Shown here piece after piece: positions 6,877 through 54,809 of a stretch of 64,000 nt of DNA. Source of the stretch: Escherichia phage dhaeg. The DNA lies in sequence record MN850609.1; one strand, given 5' to 3'. Positions within the stretch are counted from its first letter, which is position 1. The number at the start of each line of letters is the position of its first letter. The notes under the pieces are model-generated. The model was not told the DNA's origin, searched no databases, and saw only the letters and a list, made by a program, of their open reading frames with translations. The position numbers and the translations under genes were made by a program.

Positions 6877-7437
6877 ATGATTATTGAAACATCTGGGCTG
6901 TTTGGTGACCTGACTGCTGAAGTAGTTGATAATGCAATTGTGCTTTCACAAGAAGACGATAAAATCGTACTGACTATCCAAGATATCAAGCCGCTTTATG
7001 ATTTAAAGGTTTTGGACAAACACGAATATCTTAATGGCAGATTTAGAGGTGTATTTGATATTAATGATGGTTTATGGGCCCAGATTTATAACCATGACAA
7101 AGGGTTTAATTTGGAAACAGACGGAGAATGTCTGAGCATTAGCGATTCTAGTAATTTCTTTAAATGTATTTTTAAACTGTTCCAGGAAGAATGCAAGCCG
7201 GAAGTTGAATGGAAAGTCCCTGGTCAAGATGCCGTAATTCGTTCTAGTGAAACATTTGAAGGTGATGAAGAAGAAATGGATTATGATACCGAACTAACCG
7301 TGTATCAACACCAGGGCCGTGATTTGCTATCCTTGGTCCAAAGACACGACGGTGAAAATGAAGTTGTATTTACGAAGGACGAGCTAAAAGTTTTAGTATC
7401 TTATCTGAACTCTGTTATCCCAACTATGAACTCTTAA
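6877..7437 (+). CDS. hypothetical acidic protein
   Basis: 186-aa ORF with GAGGAACGGAAA RBS. Confidence 0.5.
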   Translation: MIIETSGLFGDLTAEVVDNAIVLSQEDDKIVLTIQDIKPLYDLKVLDKHEYLNGRFRGVFDINDGLWAQIYNHDKGFNLETDGECLSISDSSNFFKCIFKLFQEECKPEVEWKVPGQDAVIRSSETFEGDEEEMDYDTELTVYQHQGRDLLSLVQRHDGENEVVFTKDELKVLVSYLNSVIPTMNS

Positions 7438-7446
7438 GGAAATATT

Positions 7447-7899
7447 ATGATTATCAATGAAAACTCTTGGCATGTTAAATTACATGACCGCTTTTATGCC
7501 AGTTATTCGCGTCCGCGATCATTATGCGCATACTTCTGGAAAATGGTTTGGGTGTGCTTTATGTGTTCTGTGCTTGCAGGTAGTACTATTTTCGGCTTAA
7601 CTGTTGCAGGTGCCGGTATATTGGAGCAGTTCTTTGTATTGAGTACTCCTGTTGGTTTAAGTTTAGGTTTTATTTTAGGACTGATTATAATAGCCCTTAT
7701 TCTAGCGGTAGCTTTTGGTTTGGTGTATGGTCTAATGAATTTATGGGCCCGGTACGATTTACGTAAAGAAGAAAAAGAATGGGAACGCATTAAAGCTAAA
7801 CGTGAAGGAAAGGAAATTAAAGAAAATGTTTTCATTCAATATATTAAAGCTCGTAAATCTAAGATGTGTCCGGTAATCCATTTTGAGGCTAAGAAATGA
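7447..7899 (+). CDS. integral membrane protein
   Basis: 150 aa, two or three hydrophobic helices, basic C-terminus. Confidence 0.5.
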   Translation: MIINENSWHVKLHDRFYASYSRPRSLCAYFWKMVWVCFMCSVLAGSTIFGLTVAGAGILEQFFVLSTPVGLSLGFILGLIIIALILAVAFGLVYGLMNLWARYDLRKEEKEWERIKAKREGKEIKENVFIQYIKARKSKMCPVIHFEAKK

Positions 7900-47456: not shown

Positions 47457-47756
47457 GTGATGTACTATGCATACGTATTAGTTCACAAAGACAAAGATGG
47501 GTACGAACATCCGCTAGAATATGACGGAAAGGTGACCTTATACACCACAAAAGCGGGCGCAGAATATGAACTTGCCAACTATTCATATACTACAAACCGA
47601 TATTTACGCATGGGACGTATTGAAACAGTATGCACACCTAGAAAATGGTGGTTTGATAAGTGGGAAACAAAAACTGTTTTTCCGACTGAAGAACATGCAC
47701 GAGAATTGAAATTAGTTTTAGACACTTTATATGTTAAGCGAGTAAAATTGGCATGA
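47457..47756 (+). CDS. hypothetical protein
   Basis: 99-aa ORF. Confidence 0.45.
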   Translation: MMYYAYVLVHKDKDGYEHPLEYDGKVTLYTTKAGAEYELANYSYTTNRYLRMGRIETVCTPRKWWFDKWETKTVFPTEEHARELKLVLDTLYVKRVKLA

Positions 47757-49084
47757 TTACATTTGAAGACTTGAACATCGGCCAGAGGACGGCCTTTAAA
47801 GAAATCATTGAAGCTATTAAACGACGTAAGGGCGAATGGATTACATTGAATGGTCCTGCCGGTACAGGTAAAACGACCCTTACTAAATTTATTCTTGACC
47901 ACTTAGTCAAGAATGGCGAACTCGGAGTTATTTTGACCGCACCCACACACGCGGCCAAGAAGGTATTGTCGAAACTCGCAGGCCAAGAAGCATCGACAAT
48001 CCACCGAATCTTAAAGATTAACCCGACTACATACGAAGACCAGGATATTTTTGAACAGCGTGAAGCTCCTGACTTGAGCAAATGTAATGTTCTTGTGGTC
48101 GACGAAGGCTCAATGATTGACGGTAAGTTGTTTAAGATTATCGAAGCATCGGTTCCACCATGGTGCACTGTACTAGGGATTGGCGACCGAGCTCAGTTAC
48201 AGCCAGTAGAACCTGGAAGTGATGGTAGTCCTCAGTTGTCTCCATTCTTTACCCACCCTAAAATTAAACAGCTACACCTTACTGAAGTAATGCGTAGTAA
48301 TGCTCCTATCATTGAGGTTGCTACTGAAATCCGTAATGGTGGATGGTTCCGAGATTGTATATTCGAAGGCCATGGTGTCCATGGTTTCAAATCTCAAACA
48401 GCCTTAAAAGATTTTATGATGAATTATTTTTCCATCGTAAAAGATGCCGATGCCTTGTTTGAGAACCGGATGTTTGCTTATACGAATAAATCGGTTGAAA
48501 AGCTGAATAGCATTATTCGTAAAAAGCTTTATGAAACCGATGCGCCTTATATCAAGGGTGAAATCCTCGTGATGCAAGAGCCTTTTATGAAGGAGCTTGA
48601 ATACGACGGTAAGAAATTCTCTGAAACCATTTTTAATAACGGGCAAATGGTTCGTATTTTAGATGTGAACCATACCTCATTGTTCTTGTCTGCCAAGGAT
48701 GTAGGCACTCGCCAGATGATTAATTACTGGGACCTCCAGGTTGAATCTATCGATGAAGATGACGAGTACTACGTAGAACACTTGAAAGTTATTGATGAGG
48801 CTTCAGTTGAGAAGTTCCATTATTTCTTGGCTAAGGTGGCTACTGAGTACAAGGCTATGCGTGGAACCGGTAAGAAACCTAAGTGGGCTGATTTCTGGAA
48901 AGCCAAGAGAATGTTCACTAAGGTTAGAGCTCTTCCGGTGAGCACTGTTCATAAATCACAAGGCCTTACTGTCCAAAACAGTTTCATCTATACTCCGTGC
49001 ATGCACATGGCTGATGCGAATTTAGCTTCACAGCTGGCTTATGTTAGTATTACCCGTGCTCGTACTGATGCCTATTATGTTTGA
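47753..49084 (+). CDS. dda: Dda DNA helicase (SF1B)
   Basis: 443 aa; Walker A GPAGTGKTT; strong similarity recalled to T4 Dda throughout. Confidence 0.9.
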   Translation: MITFEDLNIGQRTAFKEIIEAIKRRKGEWITLNGPAGTGKTTLTKFILDHLVKNGELGVILTAPTHAAKKVLSKLAGQEASTIHRILKINPTTYEDQDIFEQREAPDLSKCNVLVVDEGSMIDGKLFKIIEASVPPWCTVLGIGDRAQLQPVEPGSDGSPQLSPFFTHPKIKQLHLTEVMRSNAPIIEVATEIRNGGWFRDCIFEGHGVHGFKSQTALKDFMMNYFSIVKDADALFENRMFAYTNKSVEKLNSIIRKKLYETDAPYIKGEILVMQEPFMKELEYDGKKFSETIFNNGQMVRILDVNHTSLFLSAKDVGTRQMINYWDLQVESIDEDDEYYVEHLKVIDEASVEKFHYFLAKVATEYKAMRGTGKKPKWADFWKAKRMFTKVRALPVSTVHKSQGLTVQNSFIYTPCMHMADANLASQLAYVSITRARTDAYYV

Positions 49085-49091
49085 GGAAAAT

Positions 49092-49331
49092 ATGATTAAA
49101 GTAACTAAAGACCAGTTTTATAAGTTGAAATTTGAGACGGAATATATTATTAAGGTCAATCAAGACAATACCAATATCCGTGGCAAGGCTCATAAGGTCT
49201 TGCATTCACTTAAAGAGATTGAAAGTGATTTTATTGCAGTGCAAAAACTGATGGACGACAATATCTCTTCGGTTTATATTGAAGACTATACGGTCGGCCA
49301 AATCCGAGACCTTATGAGGTATGTTAAATGA
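49092..49331 (+). CDS. hypothetical protein
   Basis: internal ATG with GAGGAAAA RBS in ORF 49041-49331. Confidence 0.45.
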   Translation: MIKVTKDQFYKLKFETEYIIKVNQDNTNIRGKAHKVLHSLKEIESDFIAVQKLMDDNISSVYIEDYTVGQIRDLMRYVK

Positions 49332-50002
49332 AAGATATAATTATTGACTTCGAAACCTTTGCTACTACTCAAAATGCGGCGGTTATTGACCTCGCCGTAA
49401 TTGCTTATGACCCCAATCCAGAGGTAGTAGAATCTTTTGAAGAGCTTACACAACGCGGCCTTCGTATTAAATTCGATTTGGCTTCTCAACGTGATAAACG
49501 TCTGTTCTCTAAAAGCACATTGCAGTGGTGGAAAGAACAAGGACCTGAAGCACGTAAAAACCTGGCTCCGTCTGAAATTGATGTGAGTACTTCTATCGGC
49601 CTTGGTAATTTCTTGGAATACTGCCGTAAAAACGAAGTGGACCAATGGAAATCCCAGATGTGGTGCCGTGGAATGTCCTTTGACTTTCCGATCTTAGTGG
49701 ACCTTATTCGCGATGCTTATCGTTCTGAAGGTGTTCCTGAGAACGAAATCGATACAACTAAGTTGGAACCGGTTAAATTCTGGAACCAACGTGATATCCG
49801 TACAGCTATTGAAGCGTATTCACTGACACGCGGATTGAGCATGTGCCCTCTGCCTAACGGAACCTTGAATGGCTTTGTTGCTCACGACTCTATCCATGAC
49901 TGTGCTAAGGATATCTTGATGCTGAAATATGCCCAACGATATGCTTTAAACCTGGAAGATGTTCCTGAGTATCCAGACCCATTAAGTATAAAAAATCGGT
50001 AA
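49328..50002 (+). CDS. dexA: exonuclease A DexA (DnaQ-like 3'-5' exonuclease)
   Basis: 224 aa; DEDD-type motifs FETF, HDSIHDC; synteny after dda. Confidence 0.7.
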   Translation: MKDIIIDFETFATTQNAAVIDLAVIAYDPNPEVVESFEELTQRGLRIKFDLASQRDKRLFSKSTLQWWKEQGPEARKNLAPSEIDVSTSIGLGNFLEYCRKNEVDQWKSQMWCRGMSFDFPILVDLIRDAYRSEGVPENEIDTTKLEPVKFWNQRDIRTAIEAYSLTRGLSMCPLPNGTLNGFVAHDSIHDCAKDILMLKYAQRYALNLEDVPEYPDPLSIKNR

Positions 50003-50006
50003 AAGT

Positions 50007-50035
50007 GTTTACTTCTCCTCATGACATGATACTAT
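50007..50035 (+). promoter_or_regulatory. early promoter (GTTTAC / TACTAT) with perfect spacer/SD inverted repeat CTCCTCATG/CATGAGGAG
   Basis: GTTTAC, 17 bp, TACTAT; 9-bp inverted repeat. Confidence 0.65.
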
Positions 50036-50061
50036 AACCCTATCAACATGAGGAGAACAAA

Positions 50062-50565
50062 ATGAAAATTTATCGAGTCGAGTCATCGTTCAGTATCTTA
50101 GATAATAGTGATGCTATCGCAATTACTCGCCAGCAATGCCGCCAATTAACACCTTATAGAGGCTCATTTGATGAATGGAGCGAAGGCTGGTTATTGGAAG
50201 TAGGTTTTGACAGGCCTAATTTTAGACACCATCATACTAATAATAAAAGCATCCCACTACCAAGTCAAGATGAATTGTTGGTTAAAAATTCTAATGCAGT
50301 AATTAAAACCAAATTCGAACATGAAGATTATAAAGGTGTAGATAACTATATCCCTGGTTGGTTTGTTAACCTCTACCATTTTGCTTTTGCCAGCGAGTAT
50401 GATATGATGCGCTGGTTCACTCGTGAAGAGCGTGCGGAATTATCTTCTAAAGGATTCTACCTTGCTGTTTACGAAATCCCTGAAGATGAGGTTGTCATTG
50501 GTGACCGCCAAGTAATGTTCCGCAAATCCCATGCTGAACTCGTAGATTTTATTGAAATGAGATAA
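50062..50565 (+). CDS. hypothetical protein
   Basis: 167-aa ORF. Confidence 0.5.
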   Translation: MKIYRVESSFSILDNSDAIAITRQQCRQLTPYRGSFDEWSEGWLLEVGFDRPNFRHHHTNNKSIPLPSQDELLVKNSNAVIKTKFEHEDYKGVDNYIPGWFVNLYHFAFASEYDMMRWFTREERAELSSKGFYLAVYEIPEDEVVIGDRQVMFRKSHAELVDFIEMR

Positions 50566-50567
50566 TT

Positions 50568-51119
50568 ATGAAATTTAATTATAATCCTAAATACACACCG
50601 AACCCAGCAGCCAAATTGATTGATTTTGATGTTTTAAGCACTTATGTGGCCCCTATTGAACCATTAGAAATTAAGGAAACCACTATGACTACTCAGACTA
50701 TCGAAATCGGCAAAACCTACAAACTGGTTGAACCTGAAATTAAAACTAAGGCCTTGATTTCTGGTTATAAAACTCTGACTGATGTTTTTGGCGAAGGCGA
50801 ATTTATTGTTGAAGAATTCGCCAAAAGTGACTGGTTTACTAAATCTTACGTAATCCACGGCCGCCGGTTAGATAATAATAGAATAGAGAAAACCCTAGTC
50901 TATGAAGCTGAATTTGGGCTTTTCCGTGAAGTCAGAGTCGAACAAGACCCTACCGACCTGTTGTGTGCTGCTGTGGCTATCCGTCGTCCTTTTGATAATC
51001 CTATCTGTGGTTGGGTAACAGACCAATGGATTGAAGATGGTGTTGAACTGCTGAACGTTGTACATGCTGGTGATTTTAGCATAGTACCTCGTAGTGCAGT
51101 GGTTAATGTATTGAATTAA
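50568..51119 (+). CDS. hypothetical protein, paralog family member A
   Basis: 183 aa; C-terminal TDQWIEDGVELLNVVHAGDF shared with next gene. Confidence 0.5.
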   Translation: MKFNYNPKYTPNPAAKLIDFDVLSTYVAPIEPLEIKETTMTTQTIEIGKTYKLVEPEIKTKALISGYKTLTDVFGEGEFIVEEFAKSDWFTKSYVIHGRRLDNNRIEKTLVYEAEFGLFREVRVEQDPTDLLCAAVAIRRPFDNPICGWVTDQWIEDGVELLNVVHAGDFSIVPRSAVVNVLN

Positions 51120-51121
51120 TA

Positions 51122-51150
51122 GTTTACTTTATCGAGAGCCATGTTATAAT
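51122..51150 (+). promoter_or_regulatory. early promoter (GTTTAC / TATAAT) with palindrome GAGAGCCAT/ATGGCTCTC bracketing the -10
   Basis: GTTTAC, 17 bp, TATAAT; perfect 9-bp inverted repeat. Confidence 0.6.
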
Positions 51151-51192
51151 GGCTCTCATGGATTATAAACCTTTAACCAAGAGAGAAAAATT

Positions 51193-51759
51193 ATGATTAC
51201 TATTTCCGATATCGGCAGTATCGTTCGTGTATCCAAAAAGTCTCGTTCAAAAGCTGCGGGCAGTTTAGTTGAAGTTGTTAGCATCCAACTTAAAGAAGGT
51301 GTCAGTGAAGAAAATTATGAAGTAAAAGTTCGTATCATTCCTAAAAATCGCCAGACTGAAACTCAATTCGGTTATGTGCGTGCTAAATTCTTGGAATCGA
51401 CTGAATTTACCGGATACATCGCTCCTGTAGTTGAAGAAGTTGAATCCCATGATGGGTATGTATGTGAAAGCAATGATATCCGTGGCGTAGTAGCTCAAGA
51501 CATTGAAACTATTGACCAATCTCATGTCGGCGTTGATTTCAAATGGAAATTAGGTCGAGGAGTGTGTTTTAATACTCCTAAACCGTTCAAATATGTTGAC
51601 GAACCTTTTGGTACTTACGAAACCAGTAGCATGTCTGGTTACATCACAGACCAGTGGGTTGAAGGTGGCGTTAAGCTCTATAACATCGTGTTCCTTGGAA
51701 CCTTTAAAGTGGTTCCTGAAAGCTTTATTGTTGAATATGCTAATATTCATCGTGCATAA
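51193..51759 (+). CDS. hypothetical protein, paralog family member B
   Basis: 188 aa; C-terminal TDQWVEGGVKLYNIVFLGTF shared with upstream gene. Confidence 0.5.
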   Translation: MITISDIGSIVRVSKKSRSKAAGSLVEVVSIQLKEGVSEENYEVKVRIIPKNRQTETQFGYVRAKFLESTEFTGYIAPVVEEVESHDGYVCESNDIRGVVAQDIETIDQSHVGVDFKWKLGRGVCFNTPKPFKYVDEPFGTYETSSMSGYITDQWVEGGVKLYNIVFLGTFKVVPESFIVEYANIHRA

Positions 51760-51772
51760 AGTTTAAAAACAG

Positions 51773-51801
51773 TATACAATACGGTAGGGTAGTGATACTA
51801 T
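51773..51801 (+). promoter_or_regulatory. early-type promoter with degenerate -35 and conserved TGATACTAT -10 block
   Basis: GTGATACTATTACCCTATCAAC. Confidence 0.35.
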
Positions 51802-51831
51802 TACCCTATCAACAAATGAGAGGAAAATAAA

Positions 51832-52050
51832 ATGGCTAAAGTTACTGTGAACTCGACTCGTGAAGAATTTGAAGATGTTCTGTTCAACCCTGATTTAATC
51901 GTGGTTCAAAAGGAACATTCTGATACGTTTTCTCATTTATCGTCGGTTTATGTATACGAAAATCAAGGTGATAAAAACCCTATATATGCAGTGTTCCGTG
52001 AAATCACTGCTGAAGGCACCGACTTCTGGAAGGAAACTTACAATGCTTAA
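51832..52050 (+). CDS. hypothetical protein
   Basis: 72-aa ORF. Confidence 0.45.
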   Translation: MAKVTVNSTREEFEDVLFNPDLIVVQKEHSDTFSHLSSVYVYENQGDKNPIYAVFREITAEGTDFWKETYNA

Positions 52051-52480
52051 TCAAGAACTCGAATTTGAAAAAGGTAAATGGTACTATTTTAAAGATGATG
52101 CTGCAGAAGCTGAATTCCGTAAGCTGAATTCCCATAATATTAGGACTCCTAATAATTCTTCTATAGCAGATATTATTGTCAATTCTGAAGGTTTTTGCCC
52201 TGTTAGATTAGCGGCAGGATATGTGATGAACGTAGACTTGGCTTATGGCGATAACATTGATATGGTTTTATATCCAAGCGAGCGTAAATTCTTTACGGAA
52301 ATGGTTGTAGTTGACAGTGAAGACGAATGGGCCGAAGATGGTTTCTCTGAAGACGAAGACCAGTCTGAAGATGCGGCTCCATTTGAACCGAGTGATTTCC
52401 CTTTGACTAAAATCACTATCTCTAATAATTCTGAAGCCTGGACTGTTTACCAGATGCTAAAAGCTCACTTTAAGGAATAA
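52043..52480 (+). CDS. hypothetical acidic protein
   Basis: internal ATG (ATGCTTAA overlap) of ORF 51950-52480. Confidence 0.45.
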   Translation: MLNQELEFEKGKWYYFKDDAAEAEFRKLNSHNIRTPNNSSIADIIVNSEGFCPVRLAAGYVMNVDLAYGDNIDMVLYPSERKFFTEMVVVDSEDEWAEDGFSEDEDQSEDAAPFEPSDFPLTKITISNNSEAWTVYQMLKAHFKE

Positions 52481-52481
52481 T

Positions 52482-52658
52482 ATGCCACTTTATGATTACA
52501 AATGCCAATCCGAAGACTGTGCAAAAGAATACGAAAAAATCAAGAAAATCTCTGAAAGAGATAATGATATTTGTCCTGATTGCCATAGGCTGGCTGTTCG
52601 GTTAGTCTCGGCCCCTAAACATGTTAATGGCGGTTTTTACGACCTGCTGACTAAGTGA
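52482..52658 (+). CDS. FmdB-family zinc-ribbon protein (unlisted ORF)
   Basis: 58 codons read by hand; MPLYDYKCQ...C...CPDC. Confidence 0.45.
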   Translation: MPLYDYKCQSEDCAKEYEKIKKISERDNDICPDCHRLAVRLVSAPKHVNGGFYDLLTK

Positions 52659-52664
52659 GAAATT

Positions 52665-52925
52665 ATGAAATACGTTAATCGTTCTATTGCAGCTCTGGTA
52701 CTAGCAGTTTCGTTGGTTGGTTGTACTGATGCCGATAATGCCGCCCGTGTATTGGATGCAAATGGCTACAAACAAATCCAAATCACAGGATACAACCTAT
52801 TTGGCTGTTCTGAAGATGATTTCCAACGTACAGGCTTTATTGCTGTAGGTCCGACAGGTAAAAGGGTTGAAGGAACAGTTTGTTCTGGGTTATTCTTTAA
52901 AAAGTCGACCATCCGATTTGATTAA
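52665..52925 (+). CDS. lipoprotein
   Basis: 86 aa; signal peptide with lipobox LVGC. Confidence 0.5.
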   Translation: MKYVNRSIAALVLAVSLVGCTDADNAARVLDANGYKQIQITGYNLFGCSEDDFQRTGFIAVGPTGKRVEGTVCSGLFFKKSTIRFD

Positions 52926-52941
52926 GGGCTTCGGCCCTTTT
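52926..52941 (+). terminator. terminator-like hairpin (GGGC-TTCG-GCCC + T4)
   Basis: short GC stem, UUCG loop, short T-tract. Confidence 0.5.
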
Positions 52942-52991
52942 ATGCTTTAAGTGAAATGGGATAATATTCTCCTACTACATGAGGAAATAAC

Positions 52992-54809
52992 ATGATTAAG
53001 AATGAAATTAAAGTACTGTCCGACATTGAACATATCAAAAAACGTAGTGGGATGTATATTGGCTCTAGTGCTAATGAAGCCCATGGTCGATTCCTGTTCG
53101 GTAATTTTACACAGGTGAACTATGTTCCAGGGCTAGTTAAATTAATTGATGAAATCATTGATAACTCTGTCGATGAAGCTATTCGTACTAATTTTAAATT
53201 CGCAAACAAAATTGATGTCCGAATTAAGAATAATCAGGTTTCAGTTTCTGATAATGGCCGTGGTATTCCACAAGCAATGGTTACTGACCAAAACGGTGAA
53301 CAAATTCCAGGTCCTGTAGCTGCATGGACTATTCCAAAGGCTGGTGGTAACTTTGGAGATGACGCAGAGCGTAAGACAGGTGGCATGAATGGTGTCGGTA
53401 GTAGTTTAACTAATATCTTCTCCGTTTTGTTCACAGGCATCACCTCTGATGGTGAGAATGAGATTACTGTTAACTGTTCTAACGGAATGGAAAACAAAGG
53501 TTGGACTACTAAGAAATCCAAAGATAAAGGCACTTCGGTTATATTCACTCCAGACTTTAACCATTTCGAAGAAAATAGTTTGACCCAAATTTATCTGGAT
53601 ATTACTTTAGATCGTCTTAAAACCCTAGCTGTAATTTATCCTAGTATCCAATTTACTTTTAATGGTAAAAAAGTAGATGGTAACTTTAAAAAGTATGCTA
53701 ATCAATTTGGTAAAGATGTAGTAATTCAAGAAACCGATAATGTCTCAATGGCATTTACTACATCTCCAGATGGTTTCCGTCAACTGACTTATGTAAACAA
53801 TATCCACACTAAGAATGGTGGTCACCACGTTGAATGCGTATTCGATGATATTTGTGAACACCTTCTGCCAGGCATTAAAAAGAAATATAGAGGAATTGAA
53901 GTAACAAAGGCTCGTGTTAAAGAATGCCTTACGATGGTAATGTTCATTCGTGATATGAGTAATATGCGTTTTGATTCCCAGACTAAAGAGCGTTTGACGT
54001 CACCATTCGGTGAAATTCGTAATCATATTCAAATTGATGCAAAGAAAATCTCACAGTATATTCTTAAAGACGAAGGGCTTATTATGCCTATCGTCGAAGC
54101 TGCTTTAGCACGTAAATTGGCAGCCGAAAAAGCAGCAGAAACAAAAGCCGCTAAGAAAGCTTTGAAAGCTAAGGTCCATAAGCATATTAAAGCCAATATG
54201 TACGGTAAAGATGCCGATACAACTCTGTTCTTGACTGAAGGTGATTCGGCGATGGGTCCTTTCATTGAAGTACGTAATAAAGACCTTCAAGGTGGTTATC
54301 CATTACGTGGTAAGGTTATGAATACCTGGGGTATGCCTGCAGTTGATATCATGAAGAACAAAGAATTGTTTGATATCTGTGCAATCACTGGACTGGTTAT
54401 TGGCGAACCTGCAGATAAAACTAACTATCGTAATATCGCTATTATGACCGATGCCGATGTGGATGGTACAGGCTCGATTTATCCATCATTGTTAGCCTTC
54501 TTTAGTCAATGGCCTGAATTATTCGAACAAGGCCGAGTACGATTCTGTAAAACTCCTGTAATTATTGCTCAGATTGGTAAAGAACAAGAATGGTTTTATG
54601 ATGTCCCTAGTTATACCAAAGCTAAGGACTCTCTACCAAAACATTCTATTCGTTATATCAAAGGACTAGGTTCTCTTGAGAAGGCTGAATACCGTCGAAT
54701 GATTCAAGACCCTAAATTTGATGTAGTTCAATTGCCTGAAGATTGGAAAGAACAGTTCGAAATGCTCCTCGGGAACGACCCTCAACTCCGTAAGGCCTGG
54801 ATGTCGTAA
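52992..54809 (+). CDS. 39: DNA topoisomerase II large subunit (gp39 with gp60-equivalent C-terminus as a single ORF)
   Basis: 605 aa; GHKL ATPase and Toprim motifs; N-terminus MIKNEIK.LSDIEHIKKRSGMYIGS as recalled for T4 gp39; continuous frame. Confidence 0.9.
   Translation: MIKNEIKVLSDIEHIKKRSGMYIGSSANEAHGRFLFGNFTQVNYVPGLVKLIDEIIDNSVDEAIRTNFKFANKIDVRIKNNQVSVSDNGRGIPQAMVTDQNGEQIPGPVAAWTIPKAGGNFGDDAERKTGGMNGVGSSLTNIFSVLFTGITSDGENEITVNCSNGMENKGWTTKKSKDKGTSVIFTPDFNHFEENSLTQIYLDITLDRLKTLAVIYPSIQFTFNGKKVDGNFKKYANQFGKDVVIQETDNVSMAFTTSPDGFRQLTYVNNIHTKNGGHHVECVFDDICEHLLPGIKKKYRGIEVTKARVKECLTMVMFIRDMSNMRFDSQTKERLTSPFGEIRNHIQIDAKKISQYILKDEGLIMPIVEAALARKLAAEKAAETKAAKKALKAKVHKHIKANMYGKDADTTLFLTEGDSAMGPFIEVRNKDLQGGYPLRGKVMNTWGMPAVDIMKNKELFDICAITGLVIGEPADKTNYRNIAIMTDADVDGTGSIYPSLLAFFSQWPELFEQGRVRFCKTPVIIAQIGKEQEWFYDVPSYTKAKDSLPKHSIRYIKGLGSLEKAEYRRMIQDPKFDVVQLPEDWKEQFEMLLGNDPQLRKAWMS

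Follow-up and report, generated by a model that had tools for sequence, protein, structure and literature searches.

Tandem genes motB.1 and motB of Escherichia phage dhaeg as old paralogues with a common C-terminal barrel

Two consecutive open reading frames in the window, the whole 64,000-nucleotide stretch of DNA from Escherichia phage dhaeg analysed here (MN850609.1), had been described from the letters alone as ending in the same module, which raises the question of what these genes are, how they are related to one another and what a domain carried by two neighboring proteins might do. Both open reading frames are present on the + strand, at 50568-51119 and 51193-51759, and encode proteins of 183 and 188 amino acids. 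Over positions 49000-53000 the window matches Escherichia phage CLB_P2 (OL770107.1, OZ035781.1; Straboviridae, Tevenvirinae, Dhakavirus) at 100% identity and the type phage JS98, in which motB.1 and motB are annotated, at about 92% identity. The genes of the locus are as follows.

47753-49084, + strand: dda
49041-49331, + strand: dexA.1
49328-50002, + strand: dexA
50062-50565, + strand: motB.2
50568-51119, + strand: motB.1, 183 amino acids plus stop; phrog_2333 match over residues 1-183 (E 7.9e-85)
51193-51759, + strand: motB, 188 amino acids plus stop; Pfam PF17613, 'Modifier of transcription' (205.6 bits, E 5e-61), and phrog_1671 (E 4.6e-70)
51832-52050, + strand: cef
52043-52480, + strand: goF-like gene
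52482-52658, + strand: 39.2
52665-52925, + strand: 39.1
52992-54809, + strand: gene 39

The gene order from dda to gene 39 agrees with the JS98 and T4 annotations (in T4, dda - dexA.1 - dexA - motB.2 - motB.1 - motB - cef - goF), and, as in those phages, motB.1 lies directly downstream of motB.2 and upstream of motB. It is therefore near certain that the two open reading frames can be identified as motB.1 and motB, early genes of the T4 type, and these are the proper labels for the pair. The MotB.1 protein is 100% identical to that of CLB_P2 and about 85% identical to JS98 MotB.1, and over its last 80 residues it shares 68% identity with intact T4 MotB.1. MotB is 55% identical to T4 MotB (E 2e-66), and two stretches of it cover most of the 162-position PF17613 profile, the best match being to profile positions 65-159. 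The pair had been placed where T4 carries dexA.1, dexA.2 and motB-region genes; the motB region stands, but dexA.1/dexA.2 do not belong in that statement, as they lie between dda and dexA in T4 and motB.1 and motB are downstream of dexA.

The relationship between the C-terminal domains (CTDs) of the two proteins was already published in 2021, almost word for word as in the preliminary description. Patterson-West et al. 2021 (Viruses 13:84, PMC7827196) reported a common CTD and differing N-terminal domains for MotB and MotB.1, raised the possibility that one gene is a duplicate of the other, divided homologues into one MotB category and three MotB.1-like categories by N-terminal domain, and listed both JS98 MotB (YP_001595137.1) and JS98 MotB.1 (YP_001595138.1) in their Table S4. 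The domain common to the two window proteins is this published MotB/MotB.1 CTD. New in the present analysis are the acidic nature of the module, the exact count of two copies, the range of seven or more domain arrangements and the frameshifts in reference sequences of motB.1.

The proposed C-terminal module of about 40 residues is real and spans 36-40 residues free of gaps. BLASTP aligned MotB.1 residues 144-183 with MotB residues 145-184, without gaps and with 18/40 identical and 27/40 positive positions (E 3e-11). The Smith-Waterman score was 108, compared to 31.7 ± 5.4 (maximum 62) when MotB was shuffled, with none of 5000 shuffles reaching 108 and a Gumbel-fit p of about 7e-9. Alignment of the family profiles with hhalign, using 31 MotB.1-type and 32 MotB-type sequences, gave a probability of 98.7% (E 2e-16). 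The earlier observation holds in all its parts. In addition, PF17613 scores 33.6 bits on MotB.1 residues 144-178, against a gathering threshold of 25 bits, and the match covers only profile positions 119-153 of 162, the C-terminal core. This core reads G-[WY]-[VI]-T-D-Q-W-[VI]-E-x-G-V-x-L-x-N-[VI]-V-x-x-G-x-F-x-[VI]-V-P-x-S. Of all parts of the two families the CTD is the best conserved: 13 columns do not vary among 19 diverse sequences. Invariant positions hold G, D, Q, W, E, G, V, L, N, V, P and S, and neither K nor R is among them.

Over their first 140 residues the two proteins, whose N-terminal halves had been called unrelated, have no similarity in sequence (score 31, shuffle mean 29.5, with 714 of 2000 shuffles scoring as high), though both N-terminal halves are predicted to form small beta-barrels. 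A KOW HMM searched against the whole CLB_P2 genome matched MotB only; as this KOW-like barrel is absent from MotB.1, MotB.1 is a paralogue with one domain in common with MotB and not itself a MotB. In total, it is near certain that motB.1 and motB are tandem paralogues, old ones, homologous only in a C-terminal barrel of approximately 45-60 residues.

The two genes are separated by a 73-nt spacer, in which a promoter had been proposed. An early-type promoter is found there, together with a hairpin.

51123-51150, + strand: motB early promoter of the sigma-70/T4-early type; TTTACT, a 16-nt spacer and the extended -10 element TGTTATAAT
51134-51157, + strand: 9-bp hairpin GAGAGCCAT/ATGGCTCTC, which spans the -10 hexamer of that promoter

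The promoter has 10/12 consensus matches plus the TG. Its hexamers GTTTAC and TATAAT are invariant in JS98, T4 and wV7, and a promoter is annotated at the equivalent site in wV7. A scan for intrinsic terminators between motB.1 and motB found none, and the hairpin is followed by no U-run. As motB owns an early promoter in this spacer, its expression is expected to come from read-through as well as from its own promoter. The hairpin region has an MFE of -21.4 kcal/mol (z -4.3); the stem at the same site in T4 is GGGACCA/TGGTCCC, different but equally paired, a pattern of compensatory changes.

In order to compare the domain structure of the two proteins, AlphaFold2 (AF2) models of MotB.1 and MotB were built from family alignments. 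The predicted parts of MotB.1 are listed below.

Residues 1-42: N-tail, predicted disordered (AF2 pLDDT < 50)
50619-50666, + strand: short motif IDFDVLSTYVAPIEPL, residues 18-33, within the disordered N-tail
50694-50933, + strand: N-terminal beta-barrel, putatively LSm/SH3-like and of GoF/Frd.2 type, residues 43-122 (AF2 pLDDT about 86-91)
50946-51116, + strand: CTD, residues 127-183, the core common with MotB being residues 144-183 (50997-51116)

The N-terminal barrel is predicted to consist of strands 50-53, 78-86, 93-100, 106-112 and 119-121 plus a helix at 61-74, and the CTD of five strands over residues 135-182 (pLDDT about 82-87). The MotB.1 CTD has a net charge of -5 and a pI of 4.2, and the whole protein a pI of 4.6-4.9. 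MotB.1 resembles the T4 and JS98 proteins of categories 2-4 of PMC7827196 in being a full-length member of phrog_2333 that lies at the same place and ends in the same CTD. It differs from T4 MotB.1 in an N-terminal domain too diverged for BLAST to link it to the T4 type and in 42 additional N-tail residues, which carry the IDFDV... motif. An LSm-like fold for the T4 MotB.1 N-domain, common to GoF and Frd.2, was reported by Kim et al. 2025 (PMC12152347); the hallmark of this family is a bent five-stranded antiparallel beta-sheet. Pointing to a likeness of the window protein to this family are a confident AF2 small barrel and a weak match of residues 44-127 to the GoF family phrog_622 (E 1.1e-4, compared to E 2e-24 for the goF-like gene of the window); hhalign of the MotB.1 N-domain against the window GoF was not significant (E 0.055). 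GoF and Frd.2 differ in having other C-terminal domains, the MotB-type CTD being confined, among these three proteins, to MotB.1.

The IDFDV... motif is kept in relatives but its place varies, from before the barrel in the window phage to between barrel and CTD in RB68/RB69/Sf25-type proteins and some KOW-type proteins. Packing of the motif on the CTD, with the LSm barrel as an insertion, was considered and is unsupported, as residues 1-42 have AF2 pLDDT < 50. Codons 1-39 of motB.1 show nine synonymous and four non-synonymous differences from JS98, which indicates that the N-tail is translated and under purifying selection. Codon 40 is an ATG preceded by an internal Shine-Dalgarno sequence, together a strong internal start signal.

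MotB is likewise predicted to contain two barrels, joined by a disordered linker.

51193-51396, + strand: N-terminal basic KOW-like barrel, residues 1-68, with an SxKSRSKAAG... motif
51397-51522, + strand: acidic disordered linker, residues 69-110 (pLDDT < 50 for residues 71-109; net charge -9)
51523-51756, + strand: CTD, residues 111-188, the core common with MotB.1 being residues 145-184 (51625-51744)

AF2 places strands at 10-13, 25-32, 43-48 and 58-63 in the N-terminal barrel (pLDDT about 80-89) and at 123-136, 140-157, 160-167, 170-175 and 179-182 in the CTD (pLDDT 79-92). The N-domain has a net charge of +4 (pI 9.7) and the CTD a net charge of 0. The protein resembles T4 MotB in its full-length Pfam match, in having motB.1 upstream and cef downstream and in its own early promoter. 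It differs in its linker, where a 24-residue acidic insertion faces a gap in the alignment with T4 MotB, and in a whole-protein pI of 5.3, compared to 9.2 in T4. The whole protein is acidic because of this linker, and arguments from charge are accordingly soft.

The number of copies of the module, and the company it keeps, were determined by HMM searches, as had been suggested in the preliminary description. Six-frame translations of the window and of the whole 172-kb CLB_P2 genome contain exactly two copies, those in motB.1 and motB (E 4e-25 and 1e-23), the next matches in either having E > 0.8. The CTD profile gave 38 matches among 1.84 billion representatives. Long proteins of 601-2743 amino acids match only through repeats of 13-30 residues, such as 'SGYATEQWVEDKGYLTEHQSL' and 'GHLGYQWQKNGVSL', and were judged short-motif coincidences and rejected as CTD homologues. 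Among relatives, the CTD occurs in at least seven domain arrangements.

Arrangement 1: KOW barrel and CTD (MotB)
Arrangement 2: KOW, 'IDxDV..S.Y..PI.P' motif and CTD
Arrangement 3: one LSm-like barrel and CTD (T4 type)
Arrangement 4: LSm-like barrel, motif and CTD (RB68/RB69/Sf25 type)
Arrangement 5: motif, LSm-like barrel and CTD (window phage, JS98)
Arrangement 6: motif, two LSm-like barrels and CTD (VR25/UPEC01 type, 251 amino acids)
Arrangement 7: an extra N-domain of about 65 residues and CTD (248-amino-acid type)

The alignments, together with these arrangements, bear out the earlier suggestion of a tandem, duplicated and diversifying family. The MotB/MotB.1 family is a clear case of domain shuffling in early host-takeover proteins, a mobile short motif included. 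We consider it highly probable that the observations on this locus are explained by old tandem paralogues, each of two small barrels with a flexible join, that have the C-terminal barrel in common.

What the common barrel does is a separate question, and most of what is known of this family concerns T4. T4 MotB, an early factor resembling a nucleoid protein, is toxic to E. coli, binds both unmodified and glucosyl-hydroxymethylated DNA tightly and without sequence specificity, co-purifies with H-NS and StpA, and doubles the burst size (Patterson-West et al. 2018, PMC6070864). Part of the later paper from the same group (PMC7827196) describes an altered H-NS footprint and de-repression of some H-NS-controlled genes, and its authors considered that either MotB domain could bind DNA. 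By orthology, given 55% identity and the same gene context, MotB of the window phage would act like T4 MotB, binding DNA and perturbing H-NS. Son et al. (2021) reportedly also found compaction of DNA by MotB. Composition and architecture suggest that the basic KOW-like N-domain would be the chief source of DNA affinity, and that the C-terminal barrel, acidic in MotB.1 and neutral in MotB, may be a common partner-binding or self-assembly module and not a DNA-binding surface. On this basis we tentatively propose, at somewhat less than even confidence, that the CTD is a docking module that places two nucleic-acid-binding heads (KOW for DNA; LSm-like, possibly for RNA) on one target. The modular use of the CTD across seven arrangements is consistent with this docking role. 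RNA-related activity has been reported for the GoF(D25Y) mutant only and not for MotB.1 (PMC12152347).

Structural comparisons were made with both two-domain models. No solved structure related by sequence to either protein was found, and matches in BFVD were to MotB.1, MotB and KOW-annotated phage proteins. The best Foldseek PDB matches for both models were tandem Tudor, Agenet and SAWADEE domains and KOW6-KOW7 of Spt5 (DSIF), all of them pairs of SH3-like barrels. These matches are weak (E about 3e-3, TM 0.25-0.4, identity 7-16%), because the relative orientation of domains in two-domain models is arbitrary, and they denote likeness of architecture, not membership, with no aromatic-cage or methyl-lysine role implied.

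The main alternative, which we regard as rather unlikely, is that the CTD is a nucleic-acid-binding OB-fold of the cold-shock type, so that MotB.1 would be a second nucleoid-type protein parallel to MotB. Small five-stranded barrels are commonly nucleic-acid binders, and the strong conservation of the CTD, with its 13 invariant columns, would suit such a role. Published HHpred results assigned T4 MotB an N-terminal KOW domain (residues 6-45) and placed its CTD among OB-folds (SCOPe b.40.4.5), with eIF5A closest (PMC7827196). MotB of the window does resemble eIF5A/EF-P (KOW plus OB-fold in that reading) in placing a second small barrel after an N-terminal KOW-like one, but differs in a CTD core of about 48 residues that AF2 builds from five consecutive hairpin-connected strands. 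Among the best 50 Foldseek PDB matches of each whole two-domain model there was no OB-fold protein, in a search with weak scores, and neither protein matched a Pfam OB family. Composition is also against a nucleic-acid-binding surface, as the module carries a net negative charge in MotB.1 and none in MotB, the whole MotB.1 protein is acidic as well, and the invariant positions are D, Q, W, E, G, N, P and S instead of K or R. The docking and OB nucleic-acid-binding readings are compatible and not mutually exclusive.

The published experiments on MotB.1 have to be read together with the state of the T4 reference sequence. In NC_000866.4/AF158101.6, motB.1 is annotated as 119 amino acids (13.8 kDa), with one extra G in the shared core (…TDQWI-G-EDGVELL…), and the out-of-frame remainder appears as a 29-codon open reading frame encoding MEDGVELLNVVHAGEYSVVPRSAVVAILN. 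This G is missing from 13 other records, eleven of T4 (including KJ477684-6, MT984581 and T4T) plus RB55 and RB59, each of which matches 260 nt of the 261-nt query. MT984581 annotates a 143-amino-acid MotB.1, and the frame-corrected 143-amino-acid protein is found on 256 contigs compared to 2 for the 119-amino-acid form. The annotated T4 MotB.1 is therefore a frameshift-truncated form, a matter unmentioned in Patterson-West et al. 2021 and Kim et al. 2025. A similar case is the RB69 reference, which has two extra bases in the motB.1 CTD where close relatives lack both, and whose 29-amino-acid 'category 3' open reading frame, RB69p012, is the out-of-frame tail of motB.1. As the constructs of Kim et al. 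were synthesised from NC_000866.4 and their MotB.1 was reported at 13.8 kDa, the protein assayed was 24 residues short at the C-terminal end of the conserved domain. For this truncated form of T4 MotB.1, none of the multimer models was confident and the reporter showed no effect (PMC12152347). Negative results with the 13.8 kDa protein may need repeating with the intact 143-amino-acid MotB.1. A more specific form of the docking proposal, which we hold to be quite unlikely in its full detail, is that the CTD is a Tudor/SH3-like docking module whose partner is H-NS/StpA, the other CTD-bearing protein or the MotB-DNA condensate, that the two heads are thereby delivered to the host nucleoid, and that an activity of MotB.1 was missed because truncated protein was assayed.

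These same frameshifts in the T4 and RB69 references could also be taken to mean that motB.1 has no function and is a copy of motB in decay, kept by linkage only. Under laboratory conditions T4 motB.1 amber and deletion mutants do plate with wild-type efficiency, and their burst size and latent period are also those of the wild type (PMC12152347). The frameshifts, however, are limited to the two old reference records, all other T4 genomes and all close relatives of RB69 being intact, and an intact motB.1 is found in hundreds of phage genomes (744 records matching). The CTD core hardly varies between proteins whose N-domains are of divergent types, and synonymous changes exceed non-synonymous changes even in the disordered N-tail, all of which makes loss of function very improbable.

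Finally, the age of the duplication was assessed at the nucleotide level. Within the module, motB.1 and motB share 55% nucleotide identity, with third codon positions identical in 16/40 codons, and therefore the duplication is old and the two copies have not been kept alike by gene conversion. That the genes adjoin and match over just 40 residues might suggest a recent duplication, gene conversion or a chance short motif, an origin that is scarcely credible given this divergence, which rules out the first two, and the shuffling results given above. The same two-gene arrangement, at equal divergence, is also present in T4, JS98, wV7 and RB69.

The T4 reference copy of motB.1 carries a frameshift in the C-terminal domain (CTD) common to MotB.1 and MotB, and extra bases are present in this domain of the RB69 reference copy as well.

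L001 (T4 reference, NC_000866.4 4500-10500) 2719-3151, about 7218-7650 of the record, minus strand: motB.1, frameshifted
L004 (RB69 reference, NC_004928.1 4500-10500) 3877-4373, minus strand: motB.1, two extra bases within the CTD

In T4, one extra G in the conserved C-terminal core truncates the product to 119 aa ("13.8 kDa"). This base is absent from 13 other records (eleven of T4, plus RB55 and RB59), in which the encoded protein is 143 aa, and the 143-aa form was found on 256 contigs compared to 2 for the short form. The frameshifted reference was the design source of published MotB.1 constructs. Both extra RB69 bases are likewise absent from close Mosigvirus relatives, and the annotated 29-aa open reading frame RB69p012, placed in "category 3" by Patterson-West 2021, is the out-of-frame tail of RB69 motB.1.

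Several further features were located in the window.

50619-50666: short conserved motif IDFDVLSTYVAPIEPL, within motB.1
50673-50687: AAGGA, a strong Shine-Dalgarno sequence inside motB.1, 7 nt upstream of the ATG at codon 40
51134-51157: 9-bp hairpin GAGAGCCAT/ATGGCTCTC at the early promoter of motB, spanning the -10 hexamer
51397-51522: inter-domain linker of CLB_P2/JS98-type MotB, containing an acidic insertion of 24 residues
51832-52050: cef, its 3' end overlapped by the start of the goF-like gene
52043-52480: goF-like gene, a phrog_622 member

The IDFDVLSTYVAPIEPL segment, predicted by AF2 to be disordered, varies in placement within the family; it lies N-terminal to the LSm-like barrel in the window MotB.1, whereas in RB68/RB69/Sf25-type and some KOW-type proteins it sits between barrel and CTD. 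Two isoforms of MotB.1 are possible. The short form (141 aa) is the one annotated in phage PP01, but compared to JS98, codons 1-39 show 9 synonymous and only 4 non-synonymous differences.

As the linker of CLB_P2/JS98-type MotB, with its acidic insertion, has a net charge of -9, the whole protein is acidic (pI 5.3), in contrast to the basic T4 MotB (pI 9.2). At the site of the promoter hairpin, T4 has a different stem, GGGACCA/TGGTCCC, indicating that pairing was preserved through compensatory changes. No U-run follows the window hairpin on its 3' side, and the structure may serve as a 3'-end stabiliser of a read-through motB.1 transcript.

Many "SGYATEQWVEDKGYLTEHQSL" repeats, similar to the MotB CTD core GY(I/V)TDQWVE, occur in three long fibre-like proteins (P0276, P0279 and P0287) matched in the CTD profile search; this likeness is probably a coincidental short motif. 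A marginal match of the goF-like gene to a choline-binding repeat (KGKWYYFKDD) is also probably without meaning. The overlap of this gene with the end of cef is the same in JS98.
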